Assembly: GCA_963841435.1 (NCBI GenBank) | Contig: CAWJCS010000005.1 | Location: 64,001 to 128,000, forward strand | DNA: 64,000 nt | Source: an uncultured delta proteobacterium | Lineage (GTDB): Bacteria > Myxococcota_A > Polyangia > Polyangiales > Polyangiaceae | Reading direction: 5' to 3' | Part shown: one piece after another, positions 18,101-62,113 of the stretch | Position numbering within the stretch: position 1 is the first letter of the stretch | Layout: every line of letters starts with the position of its first letter | The notes under the pieces: generated by a model | The model's input: the letters and a program-made list of their open reading frames with translations, nothing else | What the model was told of the DNA's origin: nothing | Databases searched by the model: none | Translations under genes and position numbers: made by a program

Positions 18101-18125
18101 GCCCCTTGATGGGGCCCGCGATGCG

Positions 18126-19352
18126 ATGAGGGTCGGAACATTCGGGCTTCGAAATGGTGATTCTGTCCGTGCGGAACAATTCCGACGAGGGAGCCTCGCG
18201 CGGCTCGTCGGCGCGGCGGTCGGCACGCTGCTCGTCGCGGGGCACGTTGCGGCGCAGCCCCGCGCGGCGCAGCCCGCAAACGCGGGGCCGAGTAGCGCCG
18301 CGACCGGCGACGCGAGCACGAGCGGCGCCACGCCGGAGATGCGCACGCTCCTCGTCGTGCGGCTCGAGGGCGCGCTCGGCGAAGCTCGCGAGGCGGCGCT
18401 CGAAAGCCTGCTGCGCTCCGAGCTTTCGTCCGCCGGCGTCGAGGTGTCGCTCGCGCGCTCGGACGAGCCGAGGCTCGCCTGGACCGCGCGCGCGCGACGC
18501 GATCGGCGCGTGCTCGTGCTCGGAATCCTCGATGCCCGCGACGAGGGCGCCTGGCGGCTCTACGTCATCGACGCCGCTCGCGGCCGGGCCATCGTGCGTC
18601 GGCTGCCGGGCGGGCTCGCAGCCGACGCAGCGGCGCTCGAGGGCGTGTCGGCGATCCTGAGCTCGGCCGTAGCCGCGGTGCGCGAGGGGCTCGAGGTCGC
18701 CTCGGCGCCCGTCGAGGAGGTGGTCGGCGGCTTGCCCGCCGAGAAGCGCGCCGCGTCCCCGCCTCCTCCGGCGCGCGCGCCGCTCGATGACGAGCGCGTG
18801 GAGACGGAGCCGTCTTCGACAGGCGCGCTCTTTCGTCCGTTCGCTGCGGCGCTCGCGCGCGGGTCGACGCTCGCGTCGCGCGTCGTGCCGGGCGGTGCGG
18901 TGCGCCTCGGGCTCTCGCACGGTCGCCTGCGTCTTTCGCTCGACGCGTCGTACGACACGCGCGCCACCGTGACGACTCCGCTCGGCGAGTTCGACCTCGA
19001 GCGCTGGCTTCTCGGCTTGAAGGCGGGCTACGTCCTTCTGCTCGGCGAGCTCTCGCTCGAGCCGCGCCTCGGCACGGGTGCCGAGCTCCTGAGCCGCCGC
19101 GGCACGATGCCGGAGGCCGGCGTCAGCGCGAGCGGCGATCGCTCCTACGCGCGCTTCACGGCGTTCGCCGGCGTGTGGCTCGGCGTGCCGCTCGGCGCCG
19201 CCGTCGCCCTGGAGCTCGGCGCCGAAGCCGCCTTCGCCCCGCGCAAGGTCCGGTTCGTCACCGAAAGCGGGGCGGAGCTCGACTCGCTGTCGCGCTTCAC
19301 CGGCGTGGCGGCGGCGGGCCTGGTGTTCGGCGCGAGCGGGTACCGGCGCTAG
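18126..19352 (+). CDS. Hypothetical exported protein with possible small C-terminal beta-barrel; ECF module partner
   Basis: Signal-like N-terminus, Pro-rich linker, amphipathic strand-like C-terminal half; directly upstream of the sigma/FecR pair; start uncertain. Confidence 0.65.
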   Translation: MRVGTFGLRNGDSVRAEQFRRGSLARLVGAAVGTLLVAGHVAAQPRAAQPANAGPSSAATGDASTSGATPEMRTLLVVRLEGALGEAREAALESLLRSELSSAGVEVSLARSDEPRLAWTARARRDRRVLVLGILDARDEGAWRLYVIDAARGRAIVRRLPGGLAADAAALEGVSAILSSAVAAVREGLEVASAPVEEVVGGLPAEKRAASPPPPARAPLDDERVETEPSSTGALFRPFAAALARGSTLASRVVPGGAVRLGLSHGRLRLSLDASYDTRATVTTPLGEFDLERWLLGLKAGYVLLLGELSLEPRLGTGAELLSRRGTMPEAGVSASGDRSYARFTAFAGVWLGVPLGAAVALELGAEAAFAPRKVRFVTESGAELDSLSRFTGVAAAGLVFGASGYRR

Positions 19353-32761: not shown

Positions 32762-35700
32762 TCAGGCAACGTCCGCGGCATCGTTGCGGATCTCGAGCCG
32801 CTTCATCATCTTCTGCAGCCCGAAGCGCGACACACCGAGCAGCTCCGCCGCGCGCGTCTGGTTGCCGCTCGTGCGACGCAACGCCGCCCGCACGAGCTCG
32901 ATCTCGAGCGCGTCGACGCGGTGACGCATGTTGAGACCATCCGCGCGCGCCACCTCGCCCGCCGTGCGCGCGCGCACCTCGGCGCTCAGGTGATCGACGA
33001 GGATCACGTCGTCCGAGAGCACGAGCGCCCGCCGCACCTCGTTCTCGAGCTGCCGGATGTTGCCGGGCCAGGTGAAGGCCGACAGGGCATCGAGCGCTGC
33101 GCGCGAAACGCGCACGCGACGGCCCATGCTGTGCTGCTTCACGAACTGCGCCACGAGCAGCGCCACGTCGCCCGTGCGCTCGCGGAGGGGTGGCACGCGC
33201 ACGGAAATCACGTTGAGCCGGTAGAAGAGGTCCTCGCGGAAACGACCCTCGCGCACGAGCTGCTCGAGGTCGCGATGCGTCGCGCCGATGATCCGAACGT
33301 CGACGCGCCGCGCGGATTCCGAGCCGACCGGACGGATCTCGCCGTCCTGCAACGCGCGCAGGAGCTTTGCCTGCATGCCGAGGCTCATCTCGGCGATTTC
33401 GTCGAGGAATAGCGTGCCACGGTGCGCCACCTCGAACAGGCCCGCGCGCGGCCGCACCGCGCCCGTGAACGCGCCGCGCACGTGACCGAACAGCGTGGAC
33501 TCGAGCAGCGTCTCGGGCACGGCTCCGCAGTTTTCCGAAACGAACGCGAAGCCGCCGCGCGGACCGTTCGCGTGGATGGCACGTGCCACGAGCTCCTTGC
33601 CGCTCCCTGACTCCCCGCTGACGAGCACGGGCACCTCCGACAAGGTGATCCGATCCACCACGTGGAGCAGCGAGCGCACGGGCTCGCTGTCCCCGACGAT
33701 GGAATCGTAGGCGAAGCGCGTGTTTCGGCCCTCGGTGGCCCGCGCGAGCTCCCGCTCCGCGACGTCTAGCTCGGCCTCGCGCCGCGCGAGCTCGCGTGAC
33801 AACCGTGCCTCGGCGCGCTCGGCACGCCGCGCCGCGCGCCTGAGTAGGAGCTCGGCCCGCGCATCGGCGATGGCCACGGCCGCGAGCGTCGCGACGAGCC
33901 GCACCCAGCCGAGCTCCGACGGCCCGAAGGCTCCCCGCCGTACGCGATCGTCGAGATAGACGACACCGAGTGCCTCGCCGTGCGCGATGAGCGGCACCGC
34001 GAGCACGCTGCGCAGCTTGAGCGCGTGCACGCTCTTGTGCACTTCGGGCAGATCACCCGCCGCGTCGACGGCCACGACCGGCTCGCCAAGCTCGAGAGCG
34101 CGCTCGGCGAGCGTGCAGCTCAAGGCGAGCTGCTCGCTCGTGAGATCGGCGCGCGAGAGGTTGCGTGCGACCCGAGGGCGGAGCTTTTCGCCCGGCGCAC
34201 GAAGCAGCAAGAGCCCCCGCTCGACGCCCGTCCACAGCACGAGCGCGTCGACCACCTGCCTCAGCAACGTTTTCAGGTGATCGCGACGTCCGAGCGCGCG
34301 CACGAGCGCCTCGACATCGGCCATCTGCGCGGCCGACAGCAGGCTCTCGCGACTCACCGCGGCCGTGGCGCGCACCCAGGGCAGGCTGTCGAGCGCCTCG
34401 GCAAGAGCGGGCGGCGAGCGACGCCGCATCTCGCGCGCCGCGTCCGCGGCGGCGAGCGTGAGCCGGCGCGCCATGTCGCCGTCGCCGACACGAGCCGCGA
34501 GGCGCGCCCCCGCCGCGAGCGCCGGACCACGTGCGACCACGGGCCCCGAGGCGAGCGCTGCGAGCTCGACGAGCACCTGCTCGGGACGGCGCGGCTCGGT
34601 GCGCCCGGCCTCGAGCCGCGCTCGCGCGCCCCACCACTCGAGCCGAGCGTCGATGGCCGTCGAGGGCAAGCGCGACAGCGCGTCGAAATGCGTCACGTCG
34701 AGGTCGGGCTCGCCGTGCGCGAGCAGGCGCGCAGCGCAGCGCAGGGCGTCGTCGTCGCCGGGCGGCAGCTGGCCCAGCGCGAAACGCGCGTGCTCGAGCG
34801 CCTCGAGATGCGGCGGCTCGTACAGGTCCGCGAGCACGAGATGGGCGAAGCCGACGCAGCGCCGATCCCCGGCTGCGCGCGCGCGCTGAGCCGCCTCGAG
34901 CGCCGCCTCGCGCGCCTCGTCGAGCGAGCCTGCCTCCGCGTGGCTCGAGGCGAGCGACAGCGTGGCGCGCGAGGCCTCCACGCGTCGCCCGAGCGCTTCG
35001 AACAGCAGCACGGAACGGCGCGCGGCGGCGATCGCCGTGCCGAGCTCGCCGAGCACGCTCGCGGCAGCGGCGACACCCGTCAGGTAAGTGGCTTCCTCGA
35101 GCACGGCGTGCGCGCGACCGGCGTGCTCCGCCGCCGAGCGGAACGCCGCCAGCGCGGCCTCTCCGTCACCGGCGGCGTGCGCCACGTTGCCGCGCACGGC
35201 GTCGATGCGGCCGCGCTCCTCGTCGCCGACGGCGACGGCCCGCGCGCGCTCGGTGAATTTCGAGCGAAAGCTCGCGTTCCCCGAGGGCGAGTGCCGCGAG
35301 CGCGCGCGTCTCGAGCACGGGGGCCGAATCGGGCTCGTCGGTGAGCAGCGCGGCGGCCTCGCGTGCGTCGCCGCGATCGAGCAGGAGTCGCGCCAACGTC
35401 GCCACGGCGCGGGCGCGCGCGGCCGCCGCGGGCCGCCCCGCGAGCACGGCCTCGACCGCTCGCTCGGCGGCCGCGTGATCACCGGCGCGCCGGTGGATCT
35501 CGGCGCGCTCGGCGAGCACCTCATCCCCCGAAAGCCGTTCGAGCACGCTGAGCGCGCGGCCCATCTGGCCGCGGCGCCGGAGCACCCGCGCGAGCGCGAG
35601 TCCGAGCGCGAGCGACGCCCCGGGCGCCTCGAGCCGGAGCTCGACCTCGTCGAGCAGCTCGGCGTCGGCCATGCCCTGCTCGAGGGCGAGCGCGAGCTCC

Positions 35701-36936
35701 ACCGGGTCGACCCCGGCGCGCGAGCGGGGCGCGCTCGACGCGGGCGCCATCAAATCCGCGACGACGAGCGATTCGGGCTCGCGACGCTCGACGGAGGCGA
35801 GCAGCCGGTCGGCGAGCGCGCCATCGTCCGACGAGCGCAGGCTCGGCCACGTGGCGGCGACGGGCCCGACGAGCGTTGCGAGCCAGCGTGCCTGCCCCAT
35901 GGGCGAGAGGTCACGCAGCCGCGCGCGACCGGTGGGCGGCGTGTCCGAGCGCAGGCCCGCGATCGCGCGCGCGAGCACGAGCGCCTCCCCGAGCCAGCGC
36001 CCAGGCTCCCCCTCGACGGCGACCTCGACCTCCTCGGCGCGGGCCGCCTGCAAGATCTCGTCGCGACGCACGGCAAGGTAGGCGCGCCGCACCGACGCGC
36101 GGCGACGCACGAGCGCGTCGGGCTCCGACTCGACGGCACCGAGCAAGACCCGAGCGCGGCGCTCGACCCAGGCCGCGGAGGGGCGCGCGCCGGGCGACTT
36201 TCGAAGCAGCGCCCGCGCGAGGCGCCCGAGCTCGTCCGGAAGCGCTTCGAGCTGCTCGGGCGTGGGGCGCTCCGCCCGCGCGACGTCCGCCGATGCCGTC
36301 TCCGCGAGCAGGAGGCCGAACGCCCAAAGATTCTCTGAGGCGCGCGTCCCCCGCGCTCTCGGCGACCTCAGGGGCGAGATAGCGCAGCGTGCCGCCCCGC
36401 GGCACGACCTCCGTCACCTCGGTGGACAGCCCGAGATCGACGAGCCGGGCGCGCCGCGGCTCACCCCCTTCGCGCGCCACGACGACGTTGGCGGCTTTGA
36501 CGTCACCGTGCGCCGACCCGGCGGCATGCAAGGCCGCGAGCGCCGCGCCGATGTCGCGGGCGATGACGAGCCCGAGCTTCGATCGCTCCTCGGCACCGAG
36601 CGCAGACGGAGCGAGCACGGTGCCCTCTGCAACACCGAGAACGAGCACGGGCGTCCCCGGTGCGATGCGCACCCCGCCCGGCAGCTCGACGGCCTCGCGC
36701 ACGACCGCGGCGTCGAGCAGCGGCGTGAGCTCCGGTGAGCTGGTCCACGCGAGGCGCGCCGCCTCGTCCGCGAAGCGCAGGCGCTGCGAGGGACCCTGCC
36801 CGATCTTGAGAGCGACCCGGCTGCCACCGTCCGCCGCGAGCCACACCGAGCTCGTGGCGCCCCCGCCGAGCCGCTGCAGCAGCGCCAACCGCCGGCGCGC
36901 GACTGTCAACTTTGTTGCCGGCTGGGATTCCCCCAT
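32762..36936 (-). CDS. Ser/Thr kinase-TPR-GAF-sigma54 enhancer-binding protein fusion (two +1 frameshifts, probably sequencing errors)
   Basis: Kinase GGGATS, VALK, HGDVKAAN, DLG, YLAPE, then DLWAFG restored by removing one base at ~36331; second shift at ~35259; GAF (LRSVLAVPL), GESGSGKE, GAFTGA, LFLDEI, FREDLFYRL, Fis HTH; corrected length 1390 aa. Confidence 0.88.
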
Positions 36937-37078
36937 ATCCCCCAAATTGTGCTGTTCTTTCAGCATCGAGTCAACCCAGATGTCAGTGGGTGGTGCCCGC
37001 TGGAACGGCTCAGCCCCAGCCGAACAAGTCAGTCTGCTCGGCCCAGCCCCCGGGCTCGGAGACGCCAGAGCGTCGGCG

Positions 37079-38173
37079 TCAGGGGCAAACGGCGCCGGCT
37101 TGGATCCAGCGCGCGATGCGCCGCACCTCATCGGCGTGGATGAAGTCCGGTGCGCCGGCGGGCGGCATGGGCTCGCCGAGCACGACGCGCTCCCTGAGGC
37201 GCGAGAGCTCGGCCTCGGACGGCAGAAGGCAGTCCTCGCCTGGTGTCCCCTCGGGGTTATTCACCGAGTAGCTGCTCTCGCACGCGTCGGAAGCGGAGCC
37301 CGGGGCGCGATACGCGCCGTGACCCGCGAGCAGTTTGTAGACGAGGTAGCTGTTATCGGGCCGACGCGGATCGATGATCGGCATGCTGGCGCCAAAGCGA
37401 GCCGGGTCTTGTAGCGCGACGCCCGTCGTGGGGCCGACCTCGGTCTCGTGGGCGACGTGGCCGATCGCGGTGCGCGAGAGCGCGTCCTCGTCACCGAGCG
37501 CGAGGCGGAGCGGAGAGCTCGGTCCGCCGTCGTGGCAGCTTGCGCAGCCGAGGTCGCCGCGAGGGCAGCCGAGGCCTTCGCAGCGGAAGATCCCCACGAT
37601 CGCTGCGCAATCCGGCGGAGGCTCGGGGCTAGGGAGCGCGCCGCGCTCGCTGCCCGTACGAAAGCTGATGGAGCGAAGCCCGCCCTCGGCGAGGGGCGCT
37701 CCGTCGATGGCGCGAAAGCCCCAATCGACGACGGCCGTCTCCGGGCTCGGCAGCGTGGGTGCGCCCGCGACGGGGAAGAGGACGCTGTAGAGCGTGTTTG
37801 ACCGCAGGGTCGCGCCGCTCGGCAGCGTGAACCGGACGACGCGCTCGAGCGGATCGTAGGTCGGTGTCATCTCCGGCAGGCGCGGATCGACGACGATCGG
37901 GTTCTTCGCGAGCCCCGTAAAGTACACGATCGATTGCCGGATCGCCGTCCGCGGCAAGAGAAAGCGGTCGAAACGAAGCTCGAGCGGCGTGTCGATGGGC
38001 ACCCCGCACACGCTTTCGCCGGGTGCGCAGTCGATGCCCGCTCCATCGGCGGGCTCGGTCGCAAGCAGGTGCAGCGACGGACCCCTCGACGGCTCGAGCT
38101 CGGGGCTTCCGAGGTCGCAACCACCCAGGCTCACGGCGACGATGCCCGCCGCCACGGTCGGCCAGCGGGTCAG
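37079..38173 (-). CDS. Lipoprotein with Ig-like domain and monoheme cytochrome c domain
   Basis: Lipobox LGGC, TEPADGA...PLELRFD Ig-like pattern, CASCH, distal MPP...IARWIQAGA; start uncertain (CTG 38173 or GTG 38155). Confidence 0.75.
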   Translation of the reverse strand: MTRWPTVAAGIVAVSLGGCDLGSPELEPSRGPSLHLLATEPADGAGIDCAPGESVCGVPIDTPLELRFDRFLLPRTAIRQSIVYFTGLAKNPIVVDPRLPEMTPTYDPLERVVRFTLPSGATLRSNTLYSVLFPVAGAPTLPSPETAVVDWGFRAIDGAPLAEGGLRSISFRTGSERGALPSPEPPPDCAAIVGIFRCEGLGCPRGDLGCASCHDGGPSSPLRLALGDEDALSRTAIGHVAHETEVGPTTGVALQDPARFGASMPIIDPRRPDNSYLVYKLLAGHGAYRAPGSASDACESSYSVNNPEGTPGEDCLLPSEAELSRLRERVVLGEPMPPAGAPDFIHADEVRRIARWIQAGAVCP

Positions 38174-38424
38174 CTGTCCGAGTAGGTGATGAGCTGGTCG
38201 CGGATGATCTGCTCGCTCACGCCCGTCTTGATGTACTCGCGCAGGCAGTCCGCCAGCGTGATGAGCACGTCGTCCACGCCGTTTTCCTCGATGATCTTCG
38301 AGAGAAGCTGGCGAGCCTCGCGGCTGTCGTCTTCCCTCAAGAATTCGCGCACTTGCTCGACGGAAATGTCGCCCTGGAAGTCGAAGTACAAGTTCTGAAA
38401 CAGGTATCGAACCAGTTCCTTCAC
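38170..38424 (-). CDS. Small acidic hypothetical protein (84 aa)
   Basis: Strong AAGGAGG RBS before GTG 38424; strongly biased codons. Confidence 0.8.
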   Translation of the reverse strand: MKELVRYLFQNLYFDFQGDISVEQVREFLREDDSREARQLLSKIIEENGVDDVLITLADCLREYIKTGVSEQIIRDQLITYSDS

Positions 38425-38526
38425 GCTGGGCCTCCTTCGCCGAGAGCCCGGAGTCATACCCACGCGGGGGATCCCGGCGCAAGCGCTTTCCCCAGTCGGG
38501 CCAGGATTTTCCATGGCTTCGCTCGC

Positions 38527-40005
38527 TCATCGGCAAATCCCGAGGGTTGGGTCGGACGGATCGTGGCAAACGAGGCACGGCCGGGCATTCTGCCGAAGCG
38601 CACGACCACAACGGCTCGCGAAGCCCGGAGGGTGCGGGCTACGGACACCCGCGCCCCCGACGGCCGCCGTGGCGTGGCACACGGCGCAATCGCGCTCGAC
38701 GTGGCAGCTCACGCACGCGTCGAGGTTCCGCTGGGCCTCCCACGCGTGATGGCCCGGCCCGCGCACGCTGTTGCTCCAGATCGACTTGGGCGGGTGGAAG
38801 CGGCCTCGACCGGCGATGTTGCCGAGCGGGCCGGACAGGGTGACGCCCGAGCGCTGGTGGCAACCGAGGCAGAAGGACTGCTCCTGGTGGCAGGAGCGAC
38901 ACGAGGGGCTGTTCGAGCGCGCTGCCACCGGGTGCTGGCTCAAAAAGTCGTTGGGATGCACGCGGCGGGGCCGCACGCGTCCGTCGTGGCAGTCGGTGCA
39001 GAAGTGCTCGGCGTGACAGCTTCCGCAGAAGCGGCTGTCGTTGGCCGCGGAGCGCTGGTGTCGCTCGACGAAGTCCGGGCCATGCTCGGCGTCGTTGAGC
39101 CAGGCAGGCGGCATGAGCTTGCCGGTCGCGAACGTGGTGCGTAGGCGCGACCCACGCTCGGTCAAGTGACAGGTGGGACAGGCGCGCGAGGGCGAGCCAG
39201 CCTTCGGGTGCTCGGCCCGGTGGCAAGAGAGGCAAGCGCGCATGCGGGGCAGCTGATCGACGGTCGCGAGCTCGAGCGAGCCGACGGCACCGTGGCAGGC
39301 CGAACAGTCCATGCCGCGCCCGACGTGTACGGCGTGATCGAAGCGCAGGTTGGGCGGCGGCACGACGATGCGCGCGACGCGCTGGCCGTCCTCGTCGCGA
39401 TACCCGACGTGGCAATAGCCGCACCGACCCGGCGCTGTTTTCCCCGCCGTGACGGGCACGGCGCGGTGGTTCGAGCCGTGACAAGCGTCGCAGCGCGAAC
39501 CCTTGGGGATCAGCGAATCGGCGCTGCGGCGGCTCGTTTTGGCTCCGTCGTGGCACGTCGTGCAGGTCGCACCGAGTGCGACATGACGCCGGTGGTCGAA
39601 GCGCACACCGAGCGCCTGCGGCGGGAAGATCACGGGGCTCGGGCCACCGTCCGAGGGTGTGGCACCGGGGGGACGAAGTTTCTCCGGTACTTTCGCGCCG
39701 CCGGGCAGCGAGTCGAGGCCGTGCACGAGCACCGCGTCCGAGGGAGCGTCGTCGAAGCTCGCGCGCGCGGCGTCGACGTCATTGGCGTCGCCGCCGCCGG
39801 CCGGCTCCTCCCCACCCGCGTCGTCGGCTCCGCCGTCGTCGAAGCTCGCGACGTCCGCACCGCCGTCGAGACTCGGCGCGGCGCGTGCGCCGGGTGACCC
39901 GCCTGGCTCGGCGCGTGCCGGCGAGAGCAGCGCGGCGACGAGCGCGAGCGCGCAGGCGACGGCAAGACCGAGCGCCGAGCTTTCGGTGCGCTCCTTGGTC
40001 GTCAT
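38527..40005 (-). CDS. Exported multiheme cytochrome c (13 CxxCH)
   Basis: Signal peptide ending ARA; 13 CxxCH motifs counted; two FDHxxH c3/c7-like units. Confidence 0.95.
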   Translation of the reverse strand: MTTKERTESSALGLAVACALALVAALLSPARAEPGGSPGARAAPSLDGGADVASFDDGGADDAGGEEPAGGGDANDVDAARASFDDAPSDAVLVHGLDSLPGGAKVPEKLRPPGATPSDGGPSPVIFPPQALGVRFDHRRHVALGATCTTCHDGAKTSRRSADSLIPKGSRCDACHGSNHRAVPVTAGKTAPGRCGYCHVGYRDEDGQRVARIVVPPPNLRFDHAVHVGRGMDCSACHGAVGSLELATVDQLPRMRACLSCHRAEHPKAGSPSRACPTCHLTERGSRLRTTFATGKLMPPAWLNDAEHGPDFVERHQRSAANDSRFCGSCHAEHFCTDCHDGRVRPRRVHPNDFLSQHPVAARSNSPSCRSCHQEQSFCLGCHQRSGVTLSGPLGNIAGRGRFHPPKSIWSNSVRGPGHHAWEAQRNLDACVSCHVERDCAVCHATAAVGGAGVRSPHPPGFASRCGRALRQNARPCLVCHDPSDPTLGICR

Positions 40006-41528
40006 CGGAGCACCGAAAAGTCGAGCGTGGCGAGCGCGCGGAAGCGCTGTCCGACGAGCCGGTTCATCGCGTGCTCCCACTCGAAGCCGAGGCGCCCCAC
40101 GTTGAAGAGGTCGAGCCCCGGCGAGAGCCCTGCACCGATGACGTAGGAGAAGCTCGTCGCGTGCCGGTCGGCTCGCAGCGCGTCTTGCCAGTCGTAGAGC
40201 GAGACGACGACGAGCGTGTCGTAGTACCCCGCGTCGAACGTGCGCGTCGTCGAGAGGTCCACCCCGTAGCGGTGTCCGCGCTCGCCGTGCTCGAGCATCC
40301 CGCGCGCCGCCGCCGTCCCGAAGCCGTAACGGTAGCGTCCGGAAAGCGCGGCGAACGGATCGGCCTCGCGCGTGCGACGCGTTTCGGTCGAGCCGCCCGG
40401 CGACGCCTCCGGGTCACCGAGCGTCTCGAAAAGTCGCACGCCGCCATCGGCCGAGACGTCGAGCCGCCGCGACAGCCCGAGATCGACCCGCGCGCTCGCC
40501 GTGGCGAGCGGTGAGTGCGAAAACCAGTTGAAGATCGAGTCGCCGTCGTAGGTCGGTACGACGCGCTCGGCGTCCAGCCCGAACGTGATGCGATCGGTCG
40601 CGTAATAATCCATCCCCACGGCGACGTCGCTCGTGAGCCCGGCGACGAGATCGTAGACCAAGCTCGCCGTGACCGCTCCGAGCTCCGGGCTCTCGAGGCG
40701 CGCCGAGGCGCCGGCCTTCTCGCTCGAAACGCGGCCGCCCGTCGTCGTGCGAATGGCGAGAAGCTCGTCGGCGAACGGCGAGACGGCAACGGTGTCACGG
40801 TTCTGGACGCGCCGGTAACCAGCGCGGAGGTGCAAGAAATCGAGGTCGATGCTCTCGATGGCGAAACCGAACGCGGGCGCGACGCGCGACTGTTCGAGGT
40901 AGCTCGTCCACTGATCGGCACGTAGATCGTCGCGTGAGCCGCGTGCGACGCCGTCAGCCTGATAGCGCGGCGTCGTCAGCATCGGGAGCCCCGAGCGCTC
41001 CTCGAGCCCACCGTACGCCTCGAGCCTCACGTATGCGGGCGTCGTCACCGACACGAGACCGCCGTCGAACGCCCAGAACCCCAGCGAGTCGGCAAGGAGC
41101 TGCCGTCCGACGCGAAATCCGACGACGCCACCGAGGTAGCCTTCGCCCTCGAGGTACGCATACATGAGGTCGAGCGGCGCCTGCTCGAGACCCGGGACGT
41201 AGCGGTCGGAGCTCGGGTCGCGCTCGGCGGGCTCCACGCCGAGATCGGCGTCGAGCCTGAGGCGTGAGCGGAAGGAGAGGCGCGGGCCGCCCGGCTTGCC
41301 CTCGCCCCCGAGATCGTAGAGCGCGAGGCCGAGCGTGTCGGTGTAGCGACGGCGCCGGATCACCGGCTCGCCGTAGGGGCTCTGGAAAGCGTAGTACTGC
41401 GCGTCGACGGACGCCGACACCTCGGACTCGTAGGCGAGCGCGCGCGGCTCGAGGACGACGGCGGCGACGAAGAGACCCGAGGCGAGCGCGTGCTTCGACG
41501 AGAAGCTCGACGCGCGCCCGTAGCCCAT
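40002..41528 (-). CDS. Putative outer-membrane beta-barrel protein
   Basis: Signal peptide (ALA-Y), many amphipathic aromatic strands, ends ALATLDFSVLR; ATGA-coupled to the multiheme cytochrome. Confidence 0.7.
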   Translation of the reverse strand: MGYGRASSFSSKHALASGLFVAAVVLEPRALAYESEVSASVDAQYYAFQSPYGEPVIRRRRYTDTLGLALYDLGGEGKPGGPRLSFRSRLRLDADLGVEPAERDPSSDRYVPGLEQAPLDLMYAYLEGEGYLGGVVGFRVGRQLLADSLGFWAFDGGLVSVTTPAYVRLEAYGGLEERSGLPMLTTPRYQADGVARGSRDDLRADQWTSYLEQSRVAPAFGFAIESIDLDFLHLRAGYRRVQNRDTVAVSPFADELLAIRTTTGGRVSSEKAGASARLESPELGAVTASLVYDLVAGLTSDVAVGMDYYATDRITFGLDAERVVPTYDGDSIFNWFSHSPLATASARVDLGLSRRLDVSADGGVRLFETLGDPEASPGGSTETRRTREADPFAALSGRYRYGFGTAAARGMLEHGERGHRYGVDLSTTRTFDAGYYDTLVVVSLYDWQDALRADRHATSFSYVIGAGLSPGLDLFNVGRLGFEWEHAMNRLVGQRFRALATLDFSVLR

Positions 41529-50663: not shown

Positions 50664-52106
50664 CTACGCGAGCATCGCGCTGATCTGGCCGCCCGAAAGA
50701 CCGCTCCCACCGAAGCTCTCGTAGGGCCCGCCGTTGTCGGTGCAGCCGACGGCGGTGAGGAGCGTGTTGTGCAGCTTGTTGTTCCCGACGCTCCCCGCGT
50801 TGACGAATTGGCCCTGCTTCAGGTACCCGCCCGCGCTGCCCGCGATGATGATCGGCAAGTTGTTGAAGCTGTGCGAGGGGCCGACCGCCACGTGGCTCGT
50901 CCACAGCGCGAACGCGTTGTCGAGCAGGGGACCGTTCGGCGTCGAGTACTGCTCCCACTTGTCGAGCAAGTACTTGAACGATTCGATGCGCAGCCGGTCG
51001 ATCGCCGCGTGTTGATCGACGGCGCCCGGGATGGCCGCGCCGGACGTACCGTCGCTCTGGATGCGATGGCTGATCCAGTGGAAGCGTTCGAGCAGCTGCC
51101 CGTCGATCGTGTAGCGCGTCGCGTCGGTACCGTCACCGACCTGCAGCGTTGCGACGCGTGTTGCGTTGCAGGAAAACGCAAAGGCGACGAGCTCCATCTG
51201 CAATTTTGCCACGTCCTCGGCCGCGCCGTTCTGACGGAAAGCCTGACCCGTGTTCATCGCCTGGATGGCCTGGACGTCGAGGCCGTCGGCGGAGCATTCG
51301 AGCCCCATCTGCATCATGGTGTTTTCCACGTCGCGAATGGACTGGAAGTGCTGATCGAGCCTATCGCGATCGGCTTGGCTGAGCTCGGGTCGATTGCGCA
51401 GCGAGTTCAGCTCTTCGCGGATCAAGTCGTTGACGCTGTTGCGACGGAGCGCCAGCCGATCGGCCGTGCCGGTGCCACTGCTACCGCCGCTGCCACCCGT
51501 CGTTCCCGATCCAACGAGCCCCACGAGGCGCTGGTAGACGTTGTAGGGATTTCCTTCGGCAGCGCGAACTTGCCCAGGGGCGCTGAAGGAAAGCTTTTCG
51601 TTGATGAAGCCACCCTTCAGCCCCGAATAAAGCGTCAGGGGATCCACGCCCGCGGGGTTGAGCTGCTCTGCGATCACCGTATCGACGGAAACGCTGGACG
51701 CCGTCAACTTGTTGTCCGTCCCATTCGGCTTGGACGCCGTGAGACACTGCACGAGCCCTTGGGCGTGCCCGCAGCCGCCGAGCCCGTACGGGTAGTTCAC
51801 GCCACGGACGATGAGCAGCCTCGCGGCGTGATCGGCGAGGATCCCCGTGCAGCGATCCGCGGCAAATGCCTGCATCGACTCGGTGGTGAGGGGCCCATCG
51901 GCGGTCGGCCAGAACTTTTCCGGATCGCCCCCCGACTTTTGCACGACGCCGCAAGACGTGCAGATGAAGAACGCGAAGCGAGGCGTCTCCGCTTGGGCGA
52001 AGGCCGAGCGTTCCGGCATCCCCTCGAGAAACGGGAGGCCCACGCCGAGCGTTCCCGCGGCCCGCAGGAACGCGCGCCGGTTGACGTGCGGGCGCTTGGG
52101 GCTCAC
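50664..52106 (-). CDS. DUF1552 family Tat-exported protein, copy 2
   Basis: NRRAFLR, LPFLE, DQHFQSIRDVE, AFSCNATRVA, HWISH, LLDN. Confidence 0.9.
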   Translation of the reverse strand: MSPKRPHVNRRAFLRAAGTLGVGLPFLEGMPERSAFAQAETPRFAFFICTSCGVVQKSGGDPEKFWPTADGPLTTESMQAFAADRCTGILADHAARLLIVRGVNYPYGLGGCGHAQGLVQCLTASKPNGTDNKLTASSVSVDTVIAEQLNPAGVDPLTLYSGLKGGFINEKLSFSAPGQVRAAEGNPYNVYQRLVGLVGSGTTGGSGGSSGTGTADRLALRRNSVNDLIREELNSLRNRPELSQADRDRLDQHFQSIRDVENTMMQMGLECSADGLDVQAIQAMNTGQAFRQNGAAEDVAKLQMELVAFAFSCNATRVATLQVGDGTDATRYTIDGQLLERFHWISHRIQSDGTSGAAIPGAVDQHAAIDRLRIESFKYLLDKWEQYSTPNGPLLDNAFALWTSHVAVGPSHSFNNLPIIIAGSAGGYLKQGQFVNAGSVGNNKLHNTLLTAVGCTDNGGPYESFGGSGLSGGQISAMLA

Positions 52107-53869
52107 TTGGCACCTCCCGTCCGGGTGAGAAAGCTCGGCTCTCCGATGACCGCGAGCACGATGTCCTTGATTGAAGCGTGGTCGTTCATGCTCATTCCTT
52201 CGATGCCGTCAACGAGAGCGCGATCACCGCCTGCGATGTCACGCGCCAGCGTGTATTCGGCCAGATGCATGGCGTAACAGCCGTGAACGCTCGGAGCTTC
52301 CGCGAGCAGAGCGGTCAGTCCGGGGGCCCCATCGAACGCGTGCAAGCCGTCCGACAATTCGAGCTCGCTCGAGGTGTCAACCGGCTTGCCGTTGTCGGTC
52401 GTGCGGATCTGGCCGATCGCGTCGAAGTTCTCGAAGGCGAAGCCCACCGGGTTGATGATCGCCCCATGGCAACCCTCGCCGCAGGTTCCCGGGCCCGTGA
52501 ACGCGTTGACGCGCTCGCGATTGGTCTGCCCTGGCGTGATGGTGGGTAAGGGTGGGATCGTGCCGGGCGGCGGCTGGAGCTCGGCGCACATCAAGCGGTT
52601 GATGATGTCAACGCCGCGGTGAATCGGATCCGGATCGTTGAGCGTCGCGTTCAACGAGAGGAAGCCGAGGCGCGTGAGGTAGCCGGGCCGCTCGGGACCG
52701 AGCTGGGTCTCGGTGAGAGCGGACCCGCTTGCCGTGACACCATACAAGGGTGCCGTCGCGGCGTTGACGAACGCGAGCGGCGAAGTCAGGAGCTCCCGCA
52801 CGCCCTGGCCAGCGGCGAAGATGCGATCGAAGAACATCTGATCGGCTAGTTGGAAGTCCGCATTGAGCGCCTGGGTGTAGTTGGGGAAGGCGGTGCGGTT
52901 CTTCTCGATCTGGGCGTAGCGATCGAGGCCCAAAAGCTCGGCGTGATAGCGGCCCAAGGTCGCCTGCCCGGCTGGCTCGGCGAGCATCGCCGTGGCTCGC
53001 GCGAGCACGCCGGCGGTCGTGTCGAGCTCCCCGGCGGCGGCCGCGTCGAGGAGCGCGTCGTCCGGAATGGTGTCGCGCAAAAGGAAGGAGAGCTTCGACG
53101 CCATCTCGTAGCCACCGAGCGGCGCGCCGTCGGTACCGAGCTCCATGCGGTAGAGGAAGTTCGGTGATTGCAGCATGCCCTCGACAATCATGTGCACCCC
53201 GTCCGCGAAGGCGTTGCCGCTCGCGACGAGCGTCACACCGGAATCGAAGACGGTCTGGTACCGCTGCTCTTCGGCGGCCGTCAGCGGGCGGCGGAAGGCC
53301 CTACGTCCGAACGTGCGAATGAACGTCGCCGAATCGGAGACGCCACCCGTGACCCGTGCGAGCGCCTGCGCATCGCCGGCAATCTGGTCAGCCAGCGTCT
53401 CGGCGGCACGCTGATAGTCGAGGCGCAGATCGGAGCTCACGAACAGCGCACGCTCGTTGTTCGAGAACGTGCCGTTCGGAGGATCCGGCGCGAAGCCTTG
53501 GGACAGCCCGGGAGTCGCGGAAAGGCCGAGCAGGTCGCGAACGCTCGCCTCCCATTGCGAAGCCGTCAGGCGAACGAAGCGAAAATAGTCGGGCGTGCCG
53601 GCGAGATCGATCCCCGAGCTCGTCGTACCCCCGGTCCCACCGAGCCCCGTGCCAGCGGAGCCCGCCGCAGCACCCGAGCTGCCCCCCGTGGCACCGGTTC
53701 CACCCGCCACCTGCGTCGTCCCGGCGCTGCCGCCCGTTCCCACGCCGCTCGAGGCGCCGCTGCCGGGCCCGCCCGCCTGTCCCCCGTCGATCGTCGCCGT
53801 GCAACCGAGGGCAAGCGCCAAAGGCAACAGCAGCAATCCGACGCGACGACCCGAGGTTGGTTTCGACAT
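52103..53869 (-). CDS. DUF1592-family lipoprotein, copy 2 (CX3CH)
   Basis: Lipobox ALGC, FGRRAFRRPL, QSPNFLYR, EMASKLSF, DPIHRG, CGEGCH, FENFDAIG. Confidence 0.9.
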   Translation of the reverse strand: MSKPTSGRRVGLLLLPLALALGCTATIDGGQAGGPGSGASSGVGTGGSAGTTQVAGGTGATGGSSGAAAGSAGTGLGGTGGTTSSGIDLAGTPDYFRFVRLTASQWEASVRDLLGLSATPGLSQGFAPDPPNGTFSNNERALFVSSDLRLDYQRAAETLADQIAGDAQALARVTGGVSDSATFIRTFGRRAFRRPLTAAEEQRYQTVFDSGVTLVASGNAFADGVHMIVEGMLQSPNFLYRMELGTDGAPLGGYEMASKLSFLLRDTIPDDALLDAAAAGELDTTAGVLARATAMLAEPAGQATLGRYHAELLGLDRYAQIEKNRTAFPNYTQALNADFQLADQMFFDRIFAAGQGVRELLTSPLAFVNAATAPLYGVTASGSALTETQLGPERPGYLTRLGFLSLNATLNDPDPIHRGVDIINRLMCAELQPPPGTIPPLPTITPGQTNRERVNAFTGPGTCGEGCHGAIINPVGFAFENFDAIGQIRTTDNGKPVDTSSELELSDGLHAFDGAPGLTALLAEAPSVHGCYAMHLAEYTLARDIAGGDRALVDGIEGMSMNDHASIKDIVLAVIGEPSFLTRTGGAK

Positions 53870-54173
53870 AGTCACCTGATTGGCTCCCGGCATCGATGTC
53901 CGCTCGAGCGGAACGTTTGGTTCTCGAGAGAGGAGGAGTCCGATGCTCCAACTATAAAGGGAGGCTTCGTCGCCCAAGCGCGCTCACAAATAAACCTTCG
54001 GTATCATTGAAAAAATGAGTACGGATTCGCTTCTCGTTGAATCCCGAACTGAGTCGTCCGTGGCCGTCCGATCACCGACCTTCGACTACGTCGGACGACA
54101 TCCACCCACCCGCTTCGGATCGTTCGGGCGAGCGTTTCGGCGGCCGAGCGGACCGTCGAGGCGCTCCCGAACG

Positions 54174-55261: not shown

Positions 55262-56645
55262 TCAGGCCTGGATGCCGGGCAACGCCGCCGTGACGCGTCC
55301 GCCGTCGAGACCGAGCTCGGTCTGCGTCGAGCCCATGATCTGCGCGGCCGTGAGGAGCGCTCGGCTCAGGTTCTCACCCGGAAAGTTGAAGTGCTCGTCG
55401 CCGCGTAGCCGGCCAGCTGCCTTCCCCGCGAGGAGCACCGGCCACTCCTCCTTCGTGTGCGTCTTACCCCAGGCGGTGTCGGAGGTGACGTAAACGAGCG
55501 TGTCGTCGAGCAGGGTCGAGCTACCGTGCGGAGTGTTCTTGAGGTTCACCAAGAATTCGTTCAGGCACTTCATCGCGTAGAGAACGCCGGTGTCGACGCG
55601 AGGCTGATTGGATTGATCTCCGGCGTCACCGTGACAGATGGTGTCGTGGAAATCGTCGTTCATGTTCGATGCGAGGTGCCGGTAGTACACGTGCGCCGCG
55701 GGTAGCGAGAACATGAACGTGGCGACGCGCGTCTTCTCGCAGGCGAGGGCGAGCGTCGTGAGCTCGGCCATGGCGGAGTTCACGGCAGGGGGAGCCTCGC
55801 TCTTCGAATCGGGGCCGACGCCGGGAGCCATCGCGCTGCCGCACGCCGCTGGCAGCGTGCCGCCCGTCGTGGGCATCGTGTCGAGGCGCAGCTCGATGGC
55901 TCGGATCGCCTCGAGGTGCTGCTCCACGCGCGCCTTGTCGGCGGCTCCGAGGCGCTGCTCGAGACTCGCGCCGTCCTCGAGAATGGCATCGAGCACGCTC
56001 TTTCGGACTCTCGCAAGCTTGGCGGCGGGATCGTCCGTACCCGTCGTGGGAGGGGGCGTGCTGCCACCCGTGAACAAGCGATTGAACACGGCCTTTGGAT
56101 CGAACTCGGGGTTCAGACGCGCGTTCGGCCCACGGTGCGACACGGTGTGCAGCGAGTCCGGATTGCCGTTCGGCGTGGCAGGCGTCACGCCCACCTCGAG
56201 CGAGCGGTAGGGCGCCCCCGTGGAAATGAGAATCCGCGACGACCTGATCGATGGACGCAGCTCGGACGGCGTTGCCGTTGAGCGGCGCGCCGGTCGTGGC
56301 CGCCGCCGACCCCGTCGGATGCTCGTTCCCGGAAACCACGAGCTTGCCCTGGAGTCCCGAGAGCACGGTGAGGTACGACTTGACCTCCACGAGCGGCTGG
56401 AGCTGTGGGCTGAGCTGCCACGCCGATCCGGAGCCCGTGCTGGTCGGCTTCCAGAGACCGGGGAGCGAGCCGTTCCCGAAGAACCAGGTCACGAACAGCG
56501 GCGTGAGGGCCGTGTTCGTCTGCGCGAGCGCCGTGCCGTTCTCGTTCAACATGGCATCCAAGAGCGGGAGCGGAATGGTGACGGCGGCACCCGTCGCAAG
56601 CATGCCCCGAAGAACGGTGCGTCGGTCCAAAGCTTTGATCGTCAT
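55262..56645 (-). CDS. DUF1552 family Tat-exported protein, copy 3 (one +1 frameshift at ~56231)
   Basis: DRRTVLR, SIDQVVAD; removing one base restores LISTGAPYRSLEVGV; ALACEKTRVA, HDTICH, TLLDDT; 460 aa corrected. Confidence 0.88.
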
Positions 56646-56662
56646 CGAAATTGCCGTTCGGA

Positions 56663-58546
56663 CTAGGGTTGCGGTGCGACGGAGGAGAACGCGTCGCTCG
56701 TCACTATGTCGAGCACGAGGTCGCGCAGCTGGAAGCCAGACGCCTGGAACGATGCGGCGAGGTCGTTCACGACGCTGCCGTCGACGTCGCGTTCCTCGTA
56801 GCCGAGCGCGTAGGAGTAGTACTTCCGGACCATGCACTGAGCGACCTCGAGGCTCGAGGCGACCGCGAAGCCCAGCTCACGAGCGTCGGCCACCGGCTGC
56901 CCCTCGAAGTCGCCGCTCGGGTCGATGGGCAAGCCGTGGTCGGTCGTGCGATAGCGGCCAATCGCATCGAAGGACTCGAGCGGCAGCCCCAGAGGGTCCA
57001 TCATCGAATGACAGCCCGCGCACGTGGGGTTTGAGCGGTGCATCTCGAGCTGCTGGCGCTTCGTCATGGGCTGGTCAACGGGCGGGTCCTCGAGCACGGG
57101 GACGTTGCCGGGGGGCGGCTCGACGGGCGTGCACAGGAGCGCCTCACGGATGAACTTGCCGCGCAACGTGGGGGACCCAGCCTTCTGGTTCGCAAACGCG
57201 GAGGCGAAGCCTGCCTTGCTGAGCAGGCCCAGGCGCGGGCCGTCCGCCGGCAACGAGCGCACGGCGAAGGTGCTCGCGGTGAGACCCGTCGTGTCGATGC
57301 CGTAAAGCTGCGCAAGGTCGAGGTTGACGACGACCTTCGGGGTCGAAAAAACGTCCATCGCGCTCGTGCGGTCGTCGAACGCGAGGACCTCCCACACGTC
57401 TCGCATGTCGCGGACCATCGCGGCCTGCAGCGCAGGGCCGTATTCCGCGAAGAGCGACGCGTCCTTGGCCTGCGTCGCGATGCGATCGAGCCGCAGGTAC
57501 TCCTCGGCGAAGGCGCCGACGGACTCGCGCCCCGCCGGCGCCTCGAGCAGCCGCGCGGCGGCGTTTCGAATGCCATCGGGCGTCGCAAGAGCACCGCTCG
57601 CGGCCTCGTCGAGCAGCGTTTCGTCGGCCAGGCTGTTCCACACGAGGAACGCCAGCCTCGACGCCGTCTCGTAGCCCGTGAAGCGCAGCGCCCCGCCCGT
57701 GCTCGGGGCTCCGAGCTCCGCGCGATAGAGGAAGTTCGGCGACGTGAAAAGCTCCACCGTCGCCCAGCGTACCCCCTCGATGGCACTCCCGAGCTCGGAC
57801 GTGGCGTTCTCGGCGACCGCCATGAGTCGGTCGACCTCGGCCGTTTCGAGTGGGCGCCGCCACGCGCGACGCCCCATGGACTGGACGAATCCACGGACGC
57901 ACGCGTCGTTCGTGCCGGTGCCCGGCGTGCAGCCGATGAACGCGGCTTGCCTGGCCGCGTCCGCCAACACGGTGTCCACGGCGCTCTCGATGGCGGTGTG
58001 GTACTGCTCGACGCCCCGCTCGGACGTGACGACGGTCGAGGCGCCGATGACGGCAAAATTCCCGTTGTAGCTGTCGGTGTCGAGCTCGCTCGTGTCGACA
58101 TCGACACCGAACACGTCGCGCACGGCGTTGCGGAACTGATTTCGCGTCAGCCGGCGCAGCAATCCCGGCGCGGCCTGGAAGGGCGGAGGGTTTTGATAGA
58201 CGGGCGGCGCGCCAGCCGTCGCGCCCGTGCCGGCAGAGCCCGTCGCTCCACTTCCACCACCGCTCGCTGCGCCGGACCCCGCCGAGCCCGCGGGCCCGGT
58301 ACCGCCTTGACCGGGTGCGCCCCCGGCTGCGCCCGCTCCGCTCGCGGACGCTCCCGCGGCGCTGCCGGCACCGCTGCCGGCAGGAGTGGTCCCATCCCCG
58401 CCCGACGACGCACCATCGACGGTGCCCGTGCACCCGATCCCCAAGAGGCACGCCGCCATGCCGGCCAGGCCGCGTGAGGGCCGCCCGCGGGAATCGAGCG
58501 TGATCCGACCCGCAACGCCGGGTCGGTCGGAGCTGTCCGTCACCAT
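56663..58546 (-). CDS. DUF1592-family heme-c lipoprotein, copy 3
   Basis: Lipobox GIGC, LRRLTRNQF, SPNFLYR, ETASRLAFLVW, SPTLRG, CAGCH, ESFDAIG. Confidence 0.9.
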   Translation of the reverse strand: MVTDSSDRPGVAGRITLDSRGRPSRGLAGMAACLLGIGCTGTVDGASSGGDGTTPAGSGAGSAAGASASGAGAAGGAPGQGGTGPAGSAGSGAASGGGSGATGSAGTGATAGAPPVYQNPPPFQAAPGLLRRLTRNQFRNAVRDVFGVDVDTSELDTDSYNGNFAVIGASTVVTSERGVEQYHTAIESAVDTVLADAARQAAFIGCTPGTGTNDACVRGFVQSMGRRAWRRPLETAEVDRLMAVAENATSELGSAIEGVRWATVELFTSPNFLYRAELGAPSTGGALRFTGYETASRLAFLVWNSLADETLLDEAASGALATPDGIRNAAARLLEAPAGRESVGAFAEEYLRLDRIATQAKDASLFAEYGPALQAAMVRDMRDVWEVLAFDDRTSAMDVFSTPKVVVNLDLAQLYGIDTTGLTASTFAVRSLPADGPRLGLLSKAGFASAFANQKAGSPTLRGKFIREALLCTPVEPPPGNVPVLEDPPVDQPMTKRQQLEMHRSNPTCAGCHSMMDPLGLPLESFDAIGRYRTTDHGLPIDPSGDFEGQPVADARELGFAVASSLEVAQCMVRKYYSYALGYEERDVDGSVVNDLAASFQASGFQLRDLVLDIVTSDAFSSVAPQP

Positions 58547-61643: not shown

Positions 61644-62113
61644 GAAAAGAAAAGGGCCAGGTTTCCGTCTCACGTTGGGCTTGATCGCAAGACCGCTCGA
61701 CGCCGCCACTCGGAGAGCACGCCGCAGCGAAACAGAAGCGACCAGCGATTCGACTTCAGACGTTCCCGACTTCGCGTTTGCGTCGCATGCGTAAGGGTGT
61801 CCACTCGGCGAAGCAACATCCGAGTCTCTGGCTTCGTGTTTGCGTCGAGTGACGAGCGCTGTTGCTCAACGCGCCAAACAGTTGACAACGCGCGCGTTCC
61901 CCGTCGCGCGAGCTTCGATCGTTCGAAGAAGATCGTTCAAGCGGCATGTAGCAGCATGTAAGCAAGCGCGGCTCGTACCCAGCGACGACGAATCTGTCGT
62001 GAGCGATTTCCACGTGCGAGCAATTGTTGAAGCTTGCTGCGAAAGCGCTTCAGCAACAGAAAAACAAACGAGCGCACGCCTCGTCGGCTTGCATCAGTAC
62101 TCGGTGTGATATC

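Follow-up and report, generated by a model that had tools for sequence, protein, structure and literature searches.

A barrel and a multiheme cytochrome encoded as neighbors across the Myxococcota: a probable porin–cytochrome pair with a putative FoxE-like lipoprotein partner

Does a four-gene cluster from an uncultured member of the Polyangiaceae encode a conduit by which electrons could cross the outer membrane and, if so, which of the four genes belong to it? The cluster lies within a 64,000-nucleotide stretch of DNA, called here the window, which corresponds to positions 64001-128000 of contig CAWJCS010000005.1 (contig C5 of the source genome, G000; assembly GCA_963841435.1). This genome comprises 7.78 Mb in 6 contigs and is 95% complete, and the G+C content of the window is approximately 70%. 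Porin–cytochrome complexes are the known route by which Gram-negative bacteria exchange electrons with minerals, and to our knowledge the Mtr structure is the only one solved. The original prediction, made from the DNA itself, was that a barrel, a 13-heme cytochrome, a small acidic protein and a lipoprotein form one extracellular electron transfer module. The analysis presented here, which builds on gene anatomy, fold predictions, conservation and co-occurrence, leads to a smaller unit: the barrel and the 13-heme cytochrome are likely to be a two-protein porin–cytochrome complex that would carry electrons across the outer membrane, with the lipoprotein as a partner. Throughout, G-codes denote sampled genomes (401 for the phylum), L-codes denote the loci examined and f9 is a sister family. 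Profile searches of genomes were scored at the search tool's own threshold unless our own hidden Markov model (HMM) is named. The parts of the cluster, as defined by open reading frames (ORFs), AlphaFold2 (AF2) models and profile matches, are as follows (aa, amino acids):

40002-41528, minus strand: predicted outer-membrane beta-barrel, 508 aa, with a signal peptide (ORF and AF2 model)
38527-40005, minus strand: 13-heme c-type cytochrome, 492 aa (13 CxxCH motifs; Pfam Cytochrome_C7)
39136-39606, minus strand: N-terminal six-heme part of the cytochrome, residues ~134-290, c7/ActA-like (profile match to the PDB)
38530-39105, minus strand: C-terminal seven-heme core of the cytochrome, residues 301-492 (complex prediction and short homologues)
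38170-38424, minus strand: acidic protein, 84 aa, GTG start, no signal peptide (ORF and conservation)
37079 to about 38173, minus strand: lipoprotein (LGGC lipobox and one CASCH)
37649-38077, minus strand: Ig-like (putatively Big_5-type) domain of the lipoprotein (AF2, VIA, Foldseek and Pfam matches of orthologues)
37082-37621, minus strand: single-heme FoxE-like domain of the lipoprotein, with CASCH at 37532-37546 (profile and structure comparison with FoxE, 5mab)

The four minus-strand ORFs, the 13 CxxCH motifs, the 84-aa acidic protein and the CASCH lipoprotein were all recovered as first described, and so was the coupling of the first two genes, in which the ATG of the cytochrome overlaps the TGA of the barrel (ATGA; CGATGACG). 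No further CxxCH-rich ORF adjoins this pair in the neighborhood of the cluster. From its N-terminus, the cytochrome consists of a Sec signal peptide, an acidic linker and the heme domains, with CxxCH at residues 148, 172, 195, 234, 258, 276, 327, 336, 369, 379, 431, 440 and 477. The heme spacing is that given in the original prediction: Pfam Cytochrome_C7 (PF14522) matches two stretches (E 4.3e-19, 68.5 bits against a gathering cut-off of 24.8), which are followed by three CxxCH-x3-4-CxxCH pairs and then by one single motif. In an alignment of 38 homologues, 12 of the motifs are invariant and the third is missing in 2 sequences; some homologues carry 12 CxxCH.

The first question is whether the 508-aa protein is a barrel at all. 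Its N-terminus has a signal-like segment followed by an AxA site before YESEV, and the protein has no match in Pfam or NCBIfam at E<=1. Modeling with AF2, using an alignment of 36 homologues, produced about 24 beta-strands after the signal helix, with a predicted local distance difference test (pLDDT) score of 66.2 and a predicted TM-score (pTM) of 0.65. Foldseek comparison with the PDB returned 25 matches at E<=0.001; every one listed is a barrel of the outer membrane, of the porin, TonB-dependent receptor, usher or a similar kind, and has a TM-score of at most 0.45. Structural alignment with VIA, run against 48,161 chains, matched only outer-membrane or organelle beta-barrels (Z 12-16), and the longest alignments, of approximately 390 residues, were to 22-strand TonB-type barrels. 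An Atlas search found only unnamed Myxococcota clusters in addition to generic barrel families at 0.91-0.92. The barrel originally proposed for 40002-41528 has survived these comparisons, and by these models the protein is a large-diameter barrel of the outer-membrane type with no specific solved relative.

The family to which this barrel belongs is sizeable. A total of 451 proteins were related to it at E<=1e-3 among 8000 scored candidates, and profile searching at the same E-value gathered 576 clusters at 50% identity. Where the source records name these homologues, the name is "hypothetical protein", and the public contigs that hold close relatives are mostly titled as Polyangiaceae or Myxococcota metagenome-assembled genomes. 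Within the sampled phylum the barrel was found in 84 of the 401 genomes at the tool's threshold, which is an undercount because the pair in G053, G046, G049 and G275 surfaced only via the cytochrome or via our own HMM. One public record, L003, is titled Gemmatimonadaceae and encodes a barrel, cytochrome, small protein and lipoprotein that are 41-75% identical to those of the window; it is possibly a mis-binned contig or a transfer.

The second question is whether barrel and cytochrome belong together, a point on which the original prediction could have failed. At 42 of 42 loci examined across the phylum, the gene that comes immediately after the barrel, in the same orientation, encodes a cytochrome with 7-13 hemes; these loci are kin and not independent trials. 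These loci comprise the close public ones (9/9, with L009 ending within the cytochrome), those from other families of the same order, where the barrel is 25-38% identical (7/7), those from other classes and families of the phylum, where the cytochrome has 12-13 CxxCH (20/20), L047 (1/1) and further loci reached via the cytochrome (5/5). The pairing persists down to the limit of barrel detection.

The third question is where the cytochrome resides relative to the barrel. One complex was predicted, between barrel residues 30-508 and cytochrome residues 118-492, using an alignment for each and three runs. The interaction prediction score from aligned errors (ipSAE) was 0.73, 0.76 and 0.75, and three controls reached 0.00 at best, this score being the model's own confidence in a fold predicted without hemes. 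For calibration, the tool's ipSAE mark is reached by 116 of 157 solved complexes and by 2 of 215 mismatched pairs, and by the tool's own reading the result supports binding and does not show it. The runs share at least 84% of their contacts, with a pLDDT of at least 78 for the partner. A learned likeness to the solved MtrCAB may have contributed to this prediction; sequence tools see no relation to MtrA or MtrB. About 400 contacts are predicted between the two proteins, and those on the barrel fall on 22 of its 24 strands, 11 of which have all of their contacts of one parity, the pattern expected of side chains that point into the lumen. Because the contact residues alternate along the strands and cover 22 of 24, the partner is placed in the lumen. 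On the cytochrome side there are 115 contact residues; the stretch 301-492 accounts for 100 of them and the stretch 118-255 for 3. The C-terminal seven-heme part is predicted, then, to sit inside the barrel and the N-terminal six-heme part outside it, and the threading of the cytochrome, originally named as a point to check, finds support in the model (ipSAE 0.75 against 0.00).

Support of an independent kind comes from a natural short form. In one family of the phylum (L069, L070 and L072), the barrel is paired with a cytochrome of 7 CxxCH motifs, encoded in ORFs of 268-337 aa, that aligns only to profile positions ~249-446 and lacks the N-terminal six-heme part. The part retained by these 7-heme homologues is the part predicted inside the barrel, which independently supports the placement of the seven-heme core there. 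The tightest predicted contacts also suggest an orientation. They join barrel segment 329-339, between strands 15 and 16, to the last heme motif at cytochrome residues 473-480. If the N-terminus of the barrel is periplasmic, this segment is an outer loop, and we infer that the C-terminal heme would then face outward and the N-terminal part of the cytochrome would point toward the periplasm.

The N-terminal six-heme part has relatives of its own. When its profile was searched against the PDB, the best match was ActA of alternative complex III (6lod, E 4.3e-19), followed by the ActA chains 8k9e, 6f0k and 6btm (E range 4.3e-19 to 2.7e-12) and then by the cytochrome c7 PpcA at ~1e-4 to 1e-3. ActA is a pentaheme subunit of alternative complex III, and the likeness differs from both ActA and c7 in that the domain is fused here to a predicted seven-heme, barrel-filling module. 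Other genes of alternative complex III were not seen in the window.

These relatives allow a different arrangement, in which the barrel is a substrate channel, for a metal ion or small redox solute, and the cytochrome is an unthreaded periplasmic redox protein that acts on whatever enters. In fold, the barrel is as close to diffusion porins and to TonB-type barrels as it is to MtrB, the nearest proteins to the cytochrome's N-terminal half are c7 and ActA, which are soluble or face the periplasm, and the heme domain of the lipoprotein is like FoxE (see below), which is thought to act on Fe(II) in the periplasm. However, an unthreaded cytochrome does not sit well with the strong complex prediction, its zero-scoring controls and its lumen-facing contacts on 22 of 24 strands, with a 7-heme short form that retains just the predicted inner part, or with gene adjacency at all 42 loci and the stop–start overlap in the window. 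We regard this arrangement as unlikely.

A second possibility is that the barrel is an export or assembly pore, through which the cytochrome would reach the cell surface or an extracellular filament and in which it would not be held permanently. A translocation intermediate would likewise model in the lumen, and at three of the nine close loci (L005, L007 and L008) pilM-N-O-P-Q immediately precede the pair in the same orientation. In the window itself, however, the genes upstream of the pair encode an EI24/CysZ-family protein and an esterase, with no pil genes. Heme-loaded cytochromes fold before export, and 24 strands with about 400 predicted contacts look like a stable fit; no polymerization-type features were seen, although none were looked for. 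Transient passage through the barrel is accordingly given a very small share of our belief, and the permanently threaded pair is the reading followed from here.

What, then, does the lipoprotein contribute? The lipobox Cys, encoded at 38117-38119, is invariant among 34 orthologues and Asp occupies the +2 position in at least 90% of them. AF2 returned a two-domain model (pLDDT 83.4, pTM 0.85). Residues 30-172 form an Ig-like sandwich that VIA aligns with Ig-like domains including those of CopC and LdtMt2 (Z 8.2-8.6) and that Foldseek matches to SbsC. Six of 9 orthologues match Pfam Big_5 (PF13205), with scores close to the cut-off or under it and a best E of 3.1e-4, the window copy having no match at E<=1. 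Residues 182-361 form a helical domain for which the only structural match is FoxE 5mab_A, with a VIA Z of 8.0 (rmsd, root-mean-square deviation, 3.4; 104 aligned residues; 21% identity), a borderline value at the edge of the tool's "common arrangement" class. In addition, a profile of the 34 orthologues searched against the PDB gave FoxE 5mab as its best match (E 1.5e-9, 40.7 bits), in four stretches that take in, for each of the two FoxE heme domains, the motifs C-x-x-C-H...G-L-x-L and M-P...W-I-x-x-G-A.

FoxE is a putative Fe(II) oxidase of a photoferrotroph, with His/Met-ligated hemes of positive potential. In the lipoprotein orthologues C207, C210, H211, M333, P334 and an S-x-L-x-Y-K motif are invariant, and the heme is probably His/Met-ligated as well. 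Each of the 34 orthologues has one heme motif at the same site. The monoheme CASCH motif originally noted is correct for the window and is not typical of the family, where C-x4-CH is found in 27 orthologues and CxxCH in 7 including the window copy. The resemblance to FoxE of Rhodobacter ferrooxidans SW2 (PDB 5MAB/5MVO) extends to the sequence and fold of the C-terminal domain. The lipoprotein differs in that it has one heme domain instead of two, fused to a lipobox and an Ig-like domain, and in its mostly C-x4-CH motif. No neighbors such as foxY or foxZ were seen in the window. The foxEYZ genes are listed among iron-oxidation genes and operons in PMC7005843 and PMC5359306.

The start of the lipoprotein is either a CTG that overlaps the TGA of the small gene (38173; CTGA) or a GTG at 38155. 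ATG, GTG and TTG are all absent from the interval 12-35 codons ahead of the lipobox Cys in 23 of the 34 orthologues, and 19 of the 34 have a CTG that overlaps a TGA; wherever the locus was inspected, this TGA is the stop codon of the small gene. By these sequence features, the lipoprotein seems to be translationally coupled to the 84-aa gene. The lipoprotein frame remains open through the small gene, and an overlapping gene was considered there and rejected: codons of that frame start at third positions of the small gene, where T is rare (87% G+C at third codon positions, GC3), so that no stops are expected.

The association of the lipoprotein with the pair is close within the order. Of the 29 genomes sampled from the window's family, 21 have both barrel and lipoprotein and 8 have neither. 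In 7 of these 8, the sole matches to the cytochrome profile are short c7/ActA-like proteins; the eighth, G225, has a weak 97-bit match with an internal TGA. The order's other families include 9 barrel-positive genomes, each of which carries the lipoprotein, and in G275 and G255, where the tool missed the barrel, the lipoprotein is present with the cytochrome nearby. Outside the order the lipoprotein is mostly not found, and none was found beside most distant pairs, so the partner is not universal. At some distant loci other proteins adjoin: the cytochrome is followed by a small Big_5 protein in L034 and in L036 and by a protein with Big_5 and cytochrome parts in L023, and a PSCyt1/Cytochrom_C protein stands ahead of the barrel in L031. 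The lipoprotein is read here as a lineage-specific redox partner of the pair, its binding to the complex being putative. With this, the porin–cytochrome–lipoprotein layout first proposed is supported for the pair and for the co-occurring lipoprotein (presence or absence agreeing in 29/29 genomes) and falls for the small protein; the lipoprotein, with its single FoxE-like heme and its Ig-like domain, is no outer multiheme cytochrome of the MtrC/OmcB kind.

Taken as a mechanism, these parts would work as follows. The ~24-strand barrel would act as a sheath and the seven-heme C-terminal core would fill its lumen and bring the last heme motif close to the outer loops. The six-heme c7/ActA-like N-terminus would hang in the periplasm as a docking end, and the lipoprotein, with its Ig-like and FoxE-like heme domains, may serve this order as a dedicated redox partner, for which the periplasmic side is the most likely place. 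Above cut-off, G000 has two CcmE genes, four COX1-family (heme-copper oxidase) genes and one NapC/NirT-family gene, so that heme attachment, aerobic respiration and a quinol-linked route are available. The four oxidase genes also agree with the description of this lineage as one usually considered aerobic.

Electrons could flow through such a complex in either direction. Outward flow would be allowed by the NapC/NirT-type quinol dehydrogenase gene, and inward flow by the FoxE-like partner and the four heme-copper oxidase genes. In a more specific and tentative version, the pair would be an electron-uptake conduit, with an origin independent of Mtr/Mto, that oxidizes Fe(II), Mn(II) or reduced humics at the surface as a lithotrophic supplement. 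Electrons would then pass inward via the seven-heme core, the c7/ActA-like end, the high-potential FoxE-like heme and a heme-copper oxidase. This version is possible, and we would not presently expect it to be correct; if it were, aerobic, predatory or polymer-degrading myxobacteria would have a lithotrophic energy supplement.

Several points weigh against the proposed conduit. The barrel model is of middling quality, with 117 residues at a pLDDT below 50 around the mean of 66.2. MtrB (6r2q_B) matches it no better than unrelated barrels do (VIA Z 12.2, rmsd 7.8, 36th in rank) and is absent among the Foldseek rows listed, although a relation may exist all the same. An aromatic last residue is common in outer-membrane proteins, and this barrel ends in ...SVLR with no terminal aromatic residue. 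Co-occurrence was counted among genomes that share a lineage and are not independent of each other, which makes the support look larger than it is, and the complex score is the model's own confidence, as described above. In E. coli, a lipoprotein with Asp at +2 would be kept at the inner membrane, which makes any placement of this lipoprotein tentative. Finally, at most of the 20 distant loci no adjoining lipoprotein was found, a Big_5 protein being found beside the cytochrome in 3 of 20.

Is the small protein a component? It has 18 Asp+Glu against 10 Lys+Arg and no signal peptide. Most of the 120 homologues listed are also 84 aa long, those 120 being 79-100% identical, and identity is 50-65% even in distant families. 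The gene has a G+C content of 57.5% and a GC3 of 87%, the latter indicating a real gene of the source genome. Nothing significant was found in Pfam or NCBIfam, the best profile match in the PDB had an E-value of 0.24, and the Atlas returned the protein's own Myxococcota clusters only, together with DUF6154 at 0.86, which is a lead only. Of the 401 phylum genomes, 76 have the gene. Among them are all 23 genomes from f9 (23/23), in which the same tool finds the barrel in none (0/23), and 4 of the 8 genomes of the window's family that lack barrel and lipoprotein. As the gene occurs in conduit-less genomes, it is a class-wide gene and probably no part of a conduit.

If the 84-aa protein and a lipoprotein cytochrome exposed at the surface nevertheless joined the other two in one MtrCAB/Pcc-like machine of four genes, their contiguity would be explained: the genes adjoin in unchanged order at 7 of the 9 close loci, as far as the contigs reach, and at 5 of the 7 loci farther off within the order, and the small gene's stop overlaps the CTG in the lipoprotein frame. 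Set against this are the missing signal peptide, the 84-aa gene standing with no barrel, cytochrome or lipoprotein nearby in L037-L041, and its presence in every f9 genome, as well as G040, G170 and G399, where the small gene and lipoprotein are paired on a contig other than that of the barrel and cytochrome. In addition, the lipoprotein has one heme, neither ten nor twelve. A four-gene machine is highly improbable; its small-protein component is largely refuted by occurrence without the conduit, and on this point the original prediction did not hold. The 84-aa protein is probably a conserved neighbor and not a conduit component.

Other surroundings of the small gene were also recorded. It is followed by DsbA-like and/or TlpA/ResA-like thioredoxin genes in L037, L038, L039 and L046, where no barrel was found, and in L023 a DsbA-like gene follows the lipoprotein. 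In L012, L015 and L016 a GT4 glycosyltransferase gene on the opposite strand separates the cytochrome from the small gene. Genome G131 (L040), of the same family and a single contig of 1.8 Mb, has a locus G+C of 48.5% and keeps the 84-aa gene; barrel and lipoprotein were not found.

How does the pair compare with systems already described? Like MtrAB, PioAB and MtoAB, it combines an outer-membrane barrel gene with an adjoining multiheme cytochrome gene, and it shares with PioAB and MtoAB a two-gene core that has no outer decaheme. As in the solved MtrAB structure (6R2Q), the cytochrome would lie in the barrel with one end in the periplasm, here by prediction only. The barrel has no match to the MtrB_PioB family (PF11854) at E<=1 and no member was found in G000, itself 95% complete. 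The cytochrome scores 23.6 bits against the DmsE/MtrA family (TIGR03508), far below the cut-off of 192.2, and no MtrA chains are among its PDB profile matches at E<=1. These comparisons agree with the earlier remark that the heme spacing is unlike that of MtrA, and membership in the MtrAB, PioAB or MtoAB families is not supported. In addition, there are 13 hemes instead of 10 and about 24 predicted strands, the MtrB barrel having 26. MtrCAB also differs in its extracellular decaheme lipoprotein, which is lacking in the cluster, where the sole lipoprotein has one heme motif.

The Pcc clusters are nearer by definition. According to Shi et al. (2014; PMC4245776), these combine a porin-like protein, with a barrel of 18-22 strands, and a periplasmic cytochrome of 5-14 hemes; sequence similarity, to OmaB and OmbB for instance, is judged there by BLAST at E<0.01. 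The same authors report two-gene clusters in three Anaeromyxobacter strains, which encode a porin-like protein and a 12-heme periplasmic cytochrome with no outer-membrane multiheme lipoprotein, and note that Adeh_3392 is up under Mn(IV)-reducing conditions (PMC4245776). The barrel and 13-heme cytochrome described here fit the loose Pcc definition, as compared by this published description only. They differ in the predicted strand number, about 24 being above the 18-22 given there, in the lack of an OmcB-like multiheme outer lipoprotein such as that of Geobacter, and in the FoxE-like single-heme lipoprotein that accompanies the pair in this order. The claim that the module is distinct therefore stands with regard to Mtr, to which there is no sequence relation, and is only partly shown for Pcc, given that two-gene Anaeromyxobacter clusters of the same phylum were reported before (PMC4245776). 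If the two belong to the same family, a predicted, uncharacterized Pcc subgroup extends across the phylum. In the full text searched, supplements aside, this cluster is not described in Polyangiaceae or Myxococcota, nor is it in the available portions of PMC11495043 and PMC12133095.

Five features are new here: the strict barrel–cytochrome pairing throughout the phylum; a cytochrome predicted to be divided between a seven-heme core that fills the barrel and a periplasmic end that is c7/ActA-like; a natural minimal 7-heme form; exact co-occurrence with a FoxE-like heme lipoprotein in the window's family; and a model from which the small protein is dropped. The unannotated barrel family is notable in size, with 576 clusters and at least 84 of 401 genomes, and more at looser thresholds. 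If the conduit is real, a large group of soil and sediment bacteria joins those that exchange electrons with their surroundings. The 7-heme version would be useful for asking how short a trans-membrane heme wire can be, and the strict link to a FoxE-like lipoprotein is a testable hint that the system may oxidize iron instead of reducing it.

Several observations concern the wider neighborhood. In L007, Pfam identifies pilM-pilN-pilO-pilP-pilQ immediately upstream of the barrel and in its orientation; L005 and L008 have at this place genes that agree in size and order and were assigned by analogy with L007. In L042 (from G225, in which the barrel was not found) the small gene stands between pilQ and a kinase gene, an arrangement that would fit insertion or loss of the pair and lipoprotein there. 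A Ser/Thr kinase-GAF-sigma54 activator follows the cluster in L001, L004, L005 and L008. In the window its gene lies downstream at 32762-37131 on the minus strand and is split over three reading frames, with breaks near 36319-36332 and 35260-35286; as L008 has one 1381-aa ORF, these are two frameshifts or assembly errors. A scan for sigma-54 promoters (TGGCAC-N5-TTGC) found 2 matches in the window, none close to the cluster, a number equalled by 79 of 100 shuffles. Among sequencing runs, no RNA run was listed as containing the cluster, and two soil DNA runs from one study contained 5-6% of the sequence words. Elsewhere in the window, PSD/PSCyt3-domain proteins are encoded at 14877-18346, 50667-53977, 55265-58546 and 62024-63898. 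Three of these adjoin DUF1552 (HXXSHH) proteins, and genes for extracytoplasmic function (ECF) sigma factors and FecR-like proteins lie between the PSD/PSCyt3 proteins.

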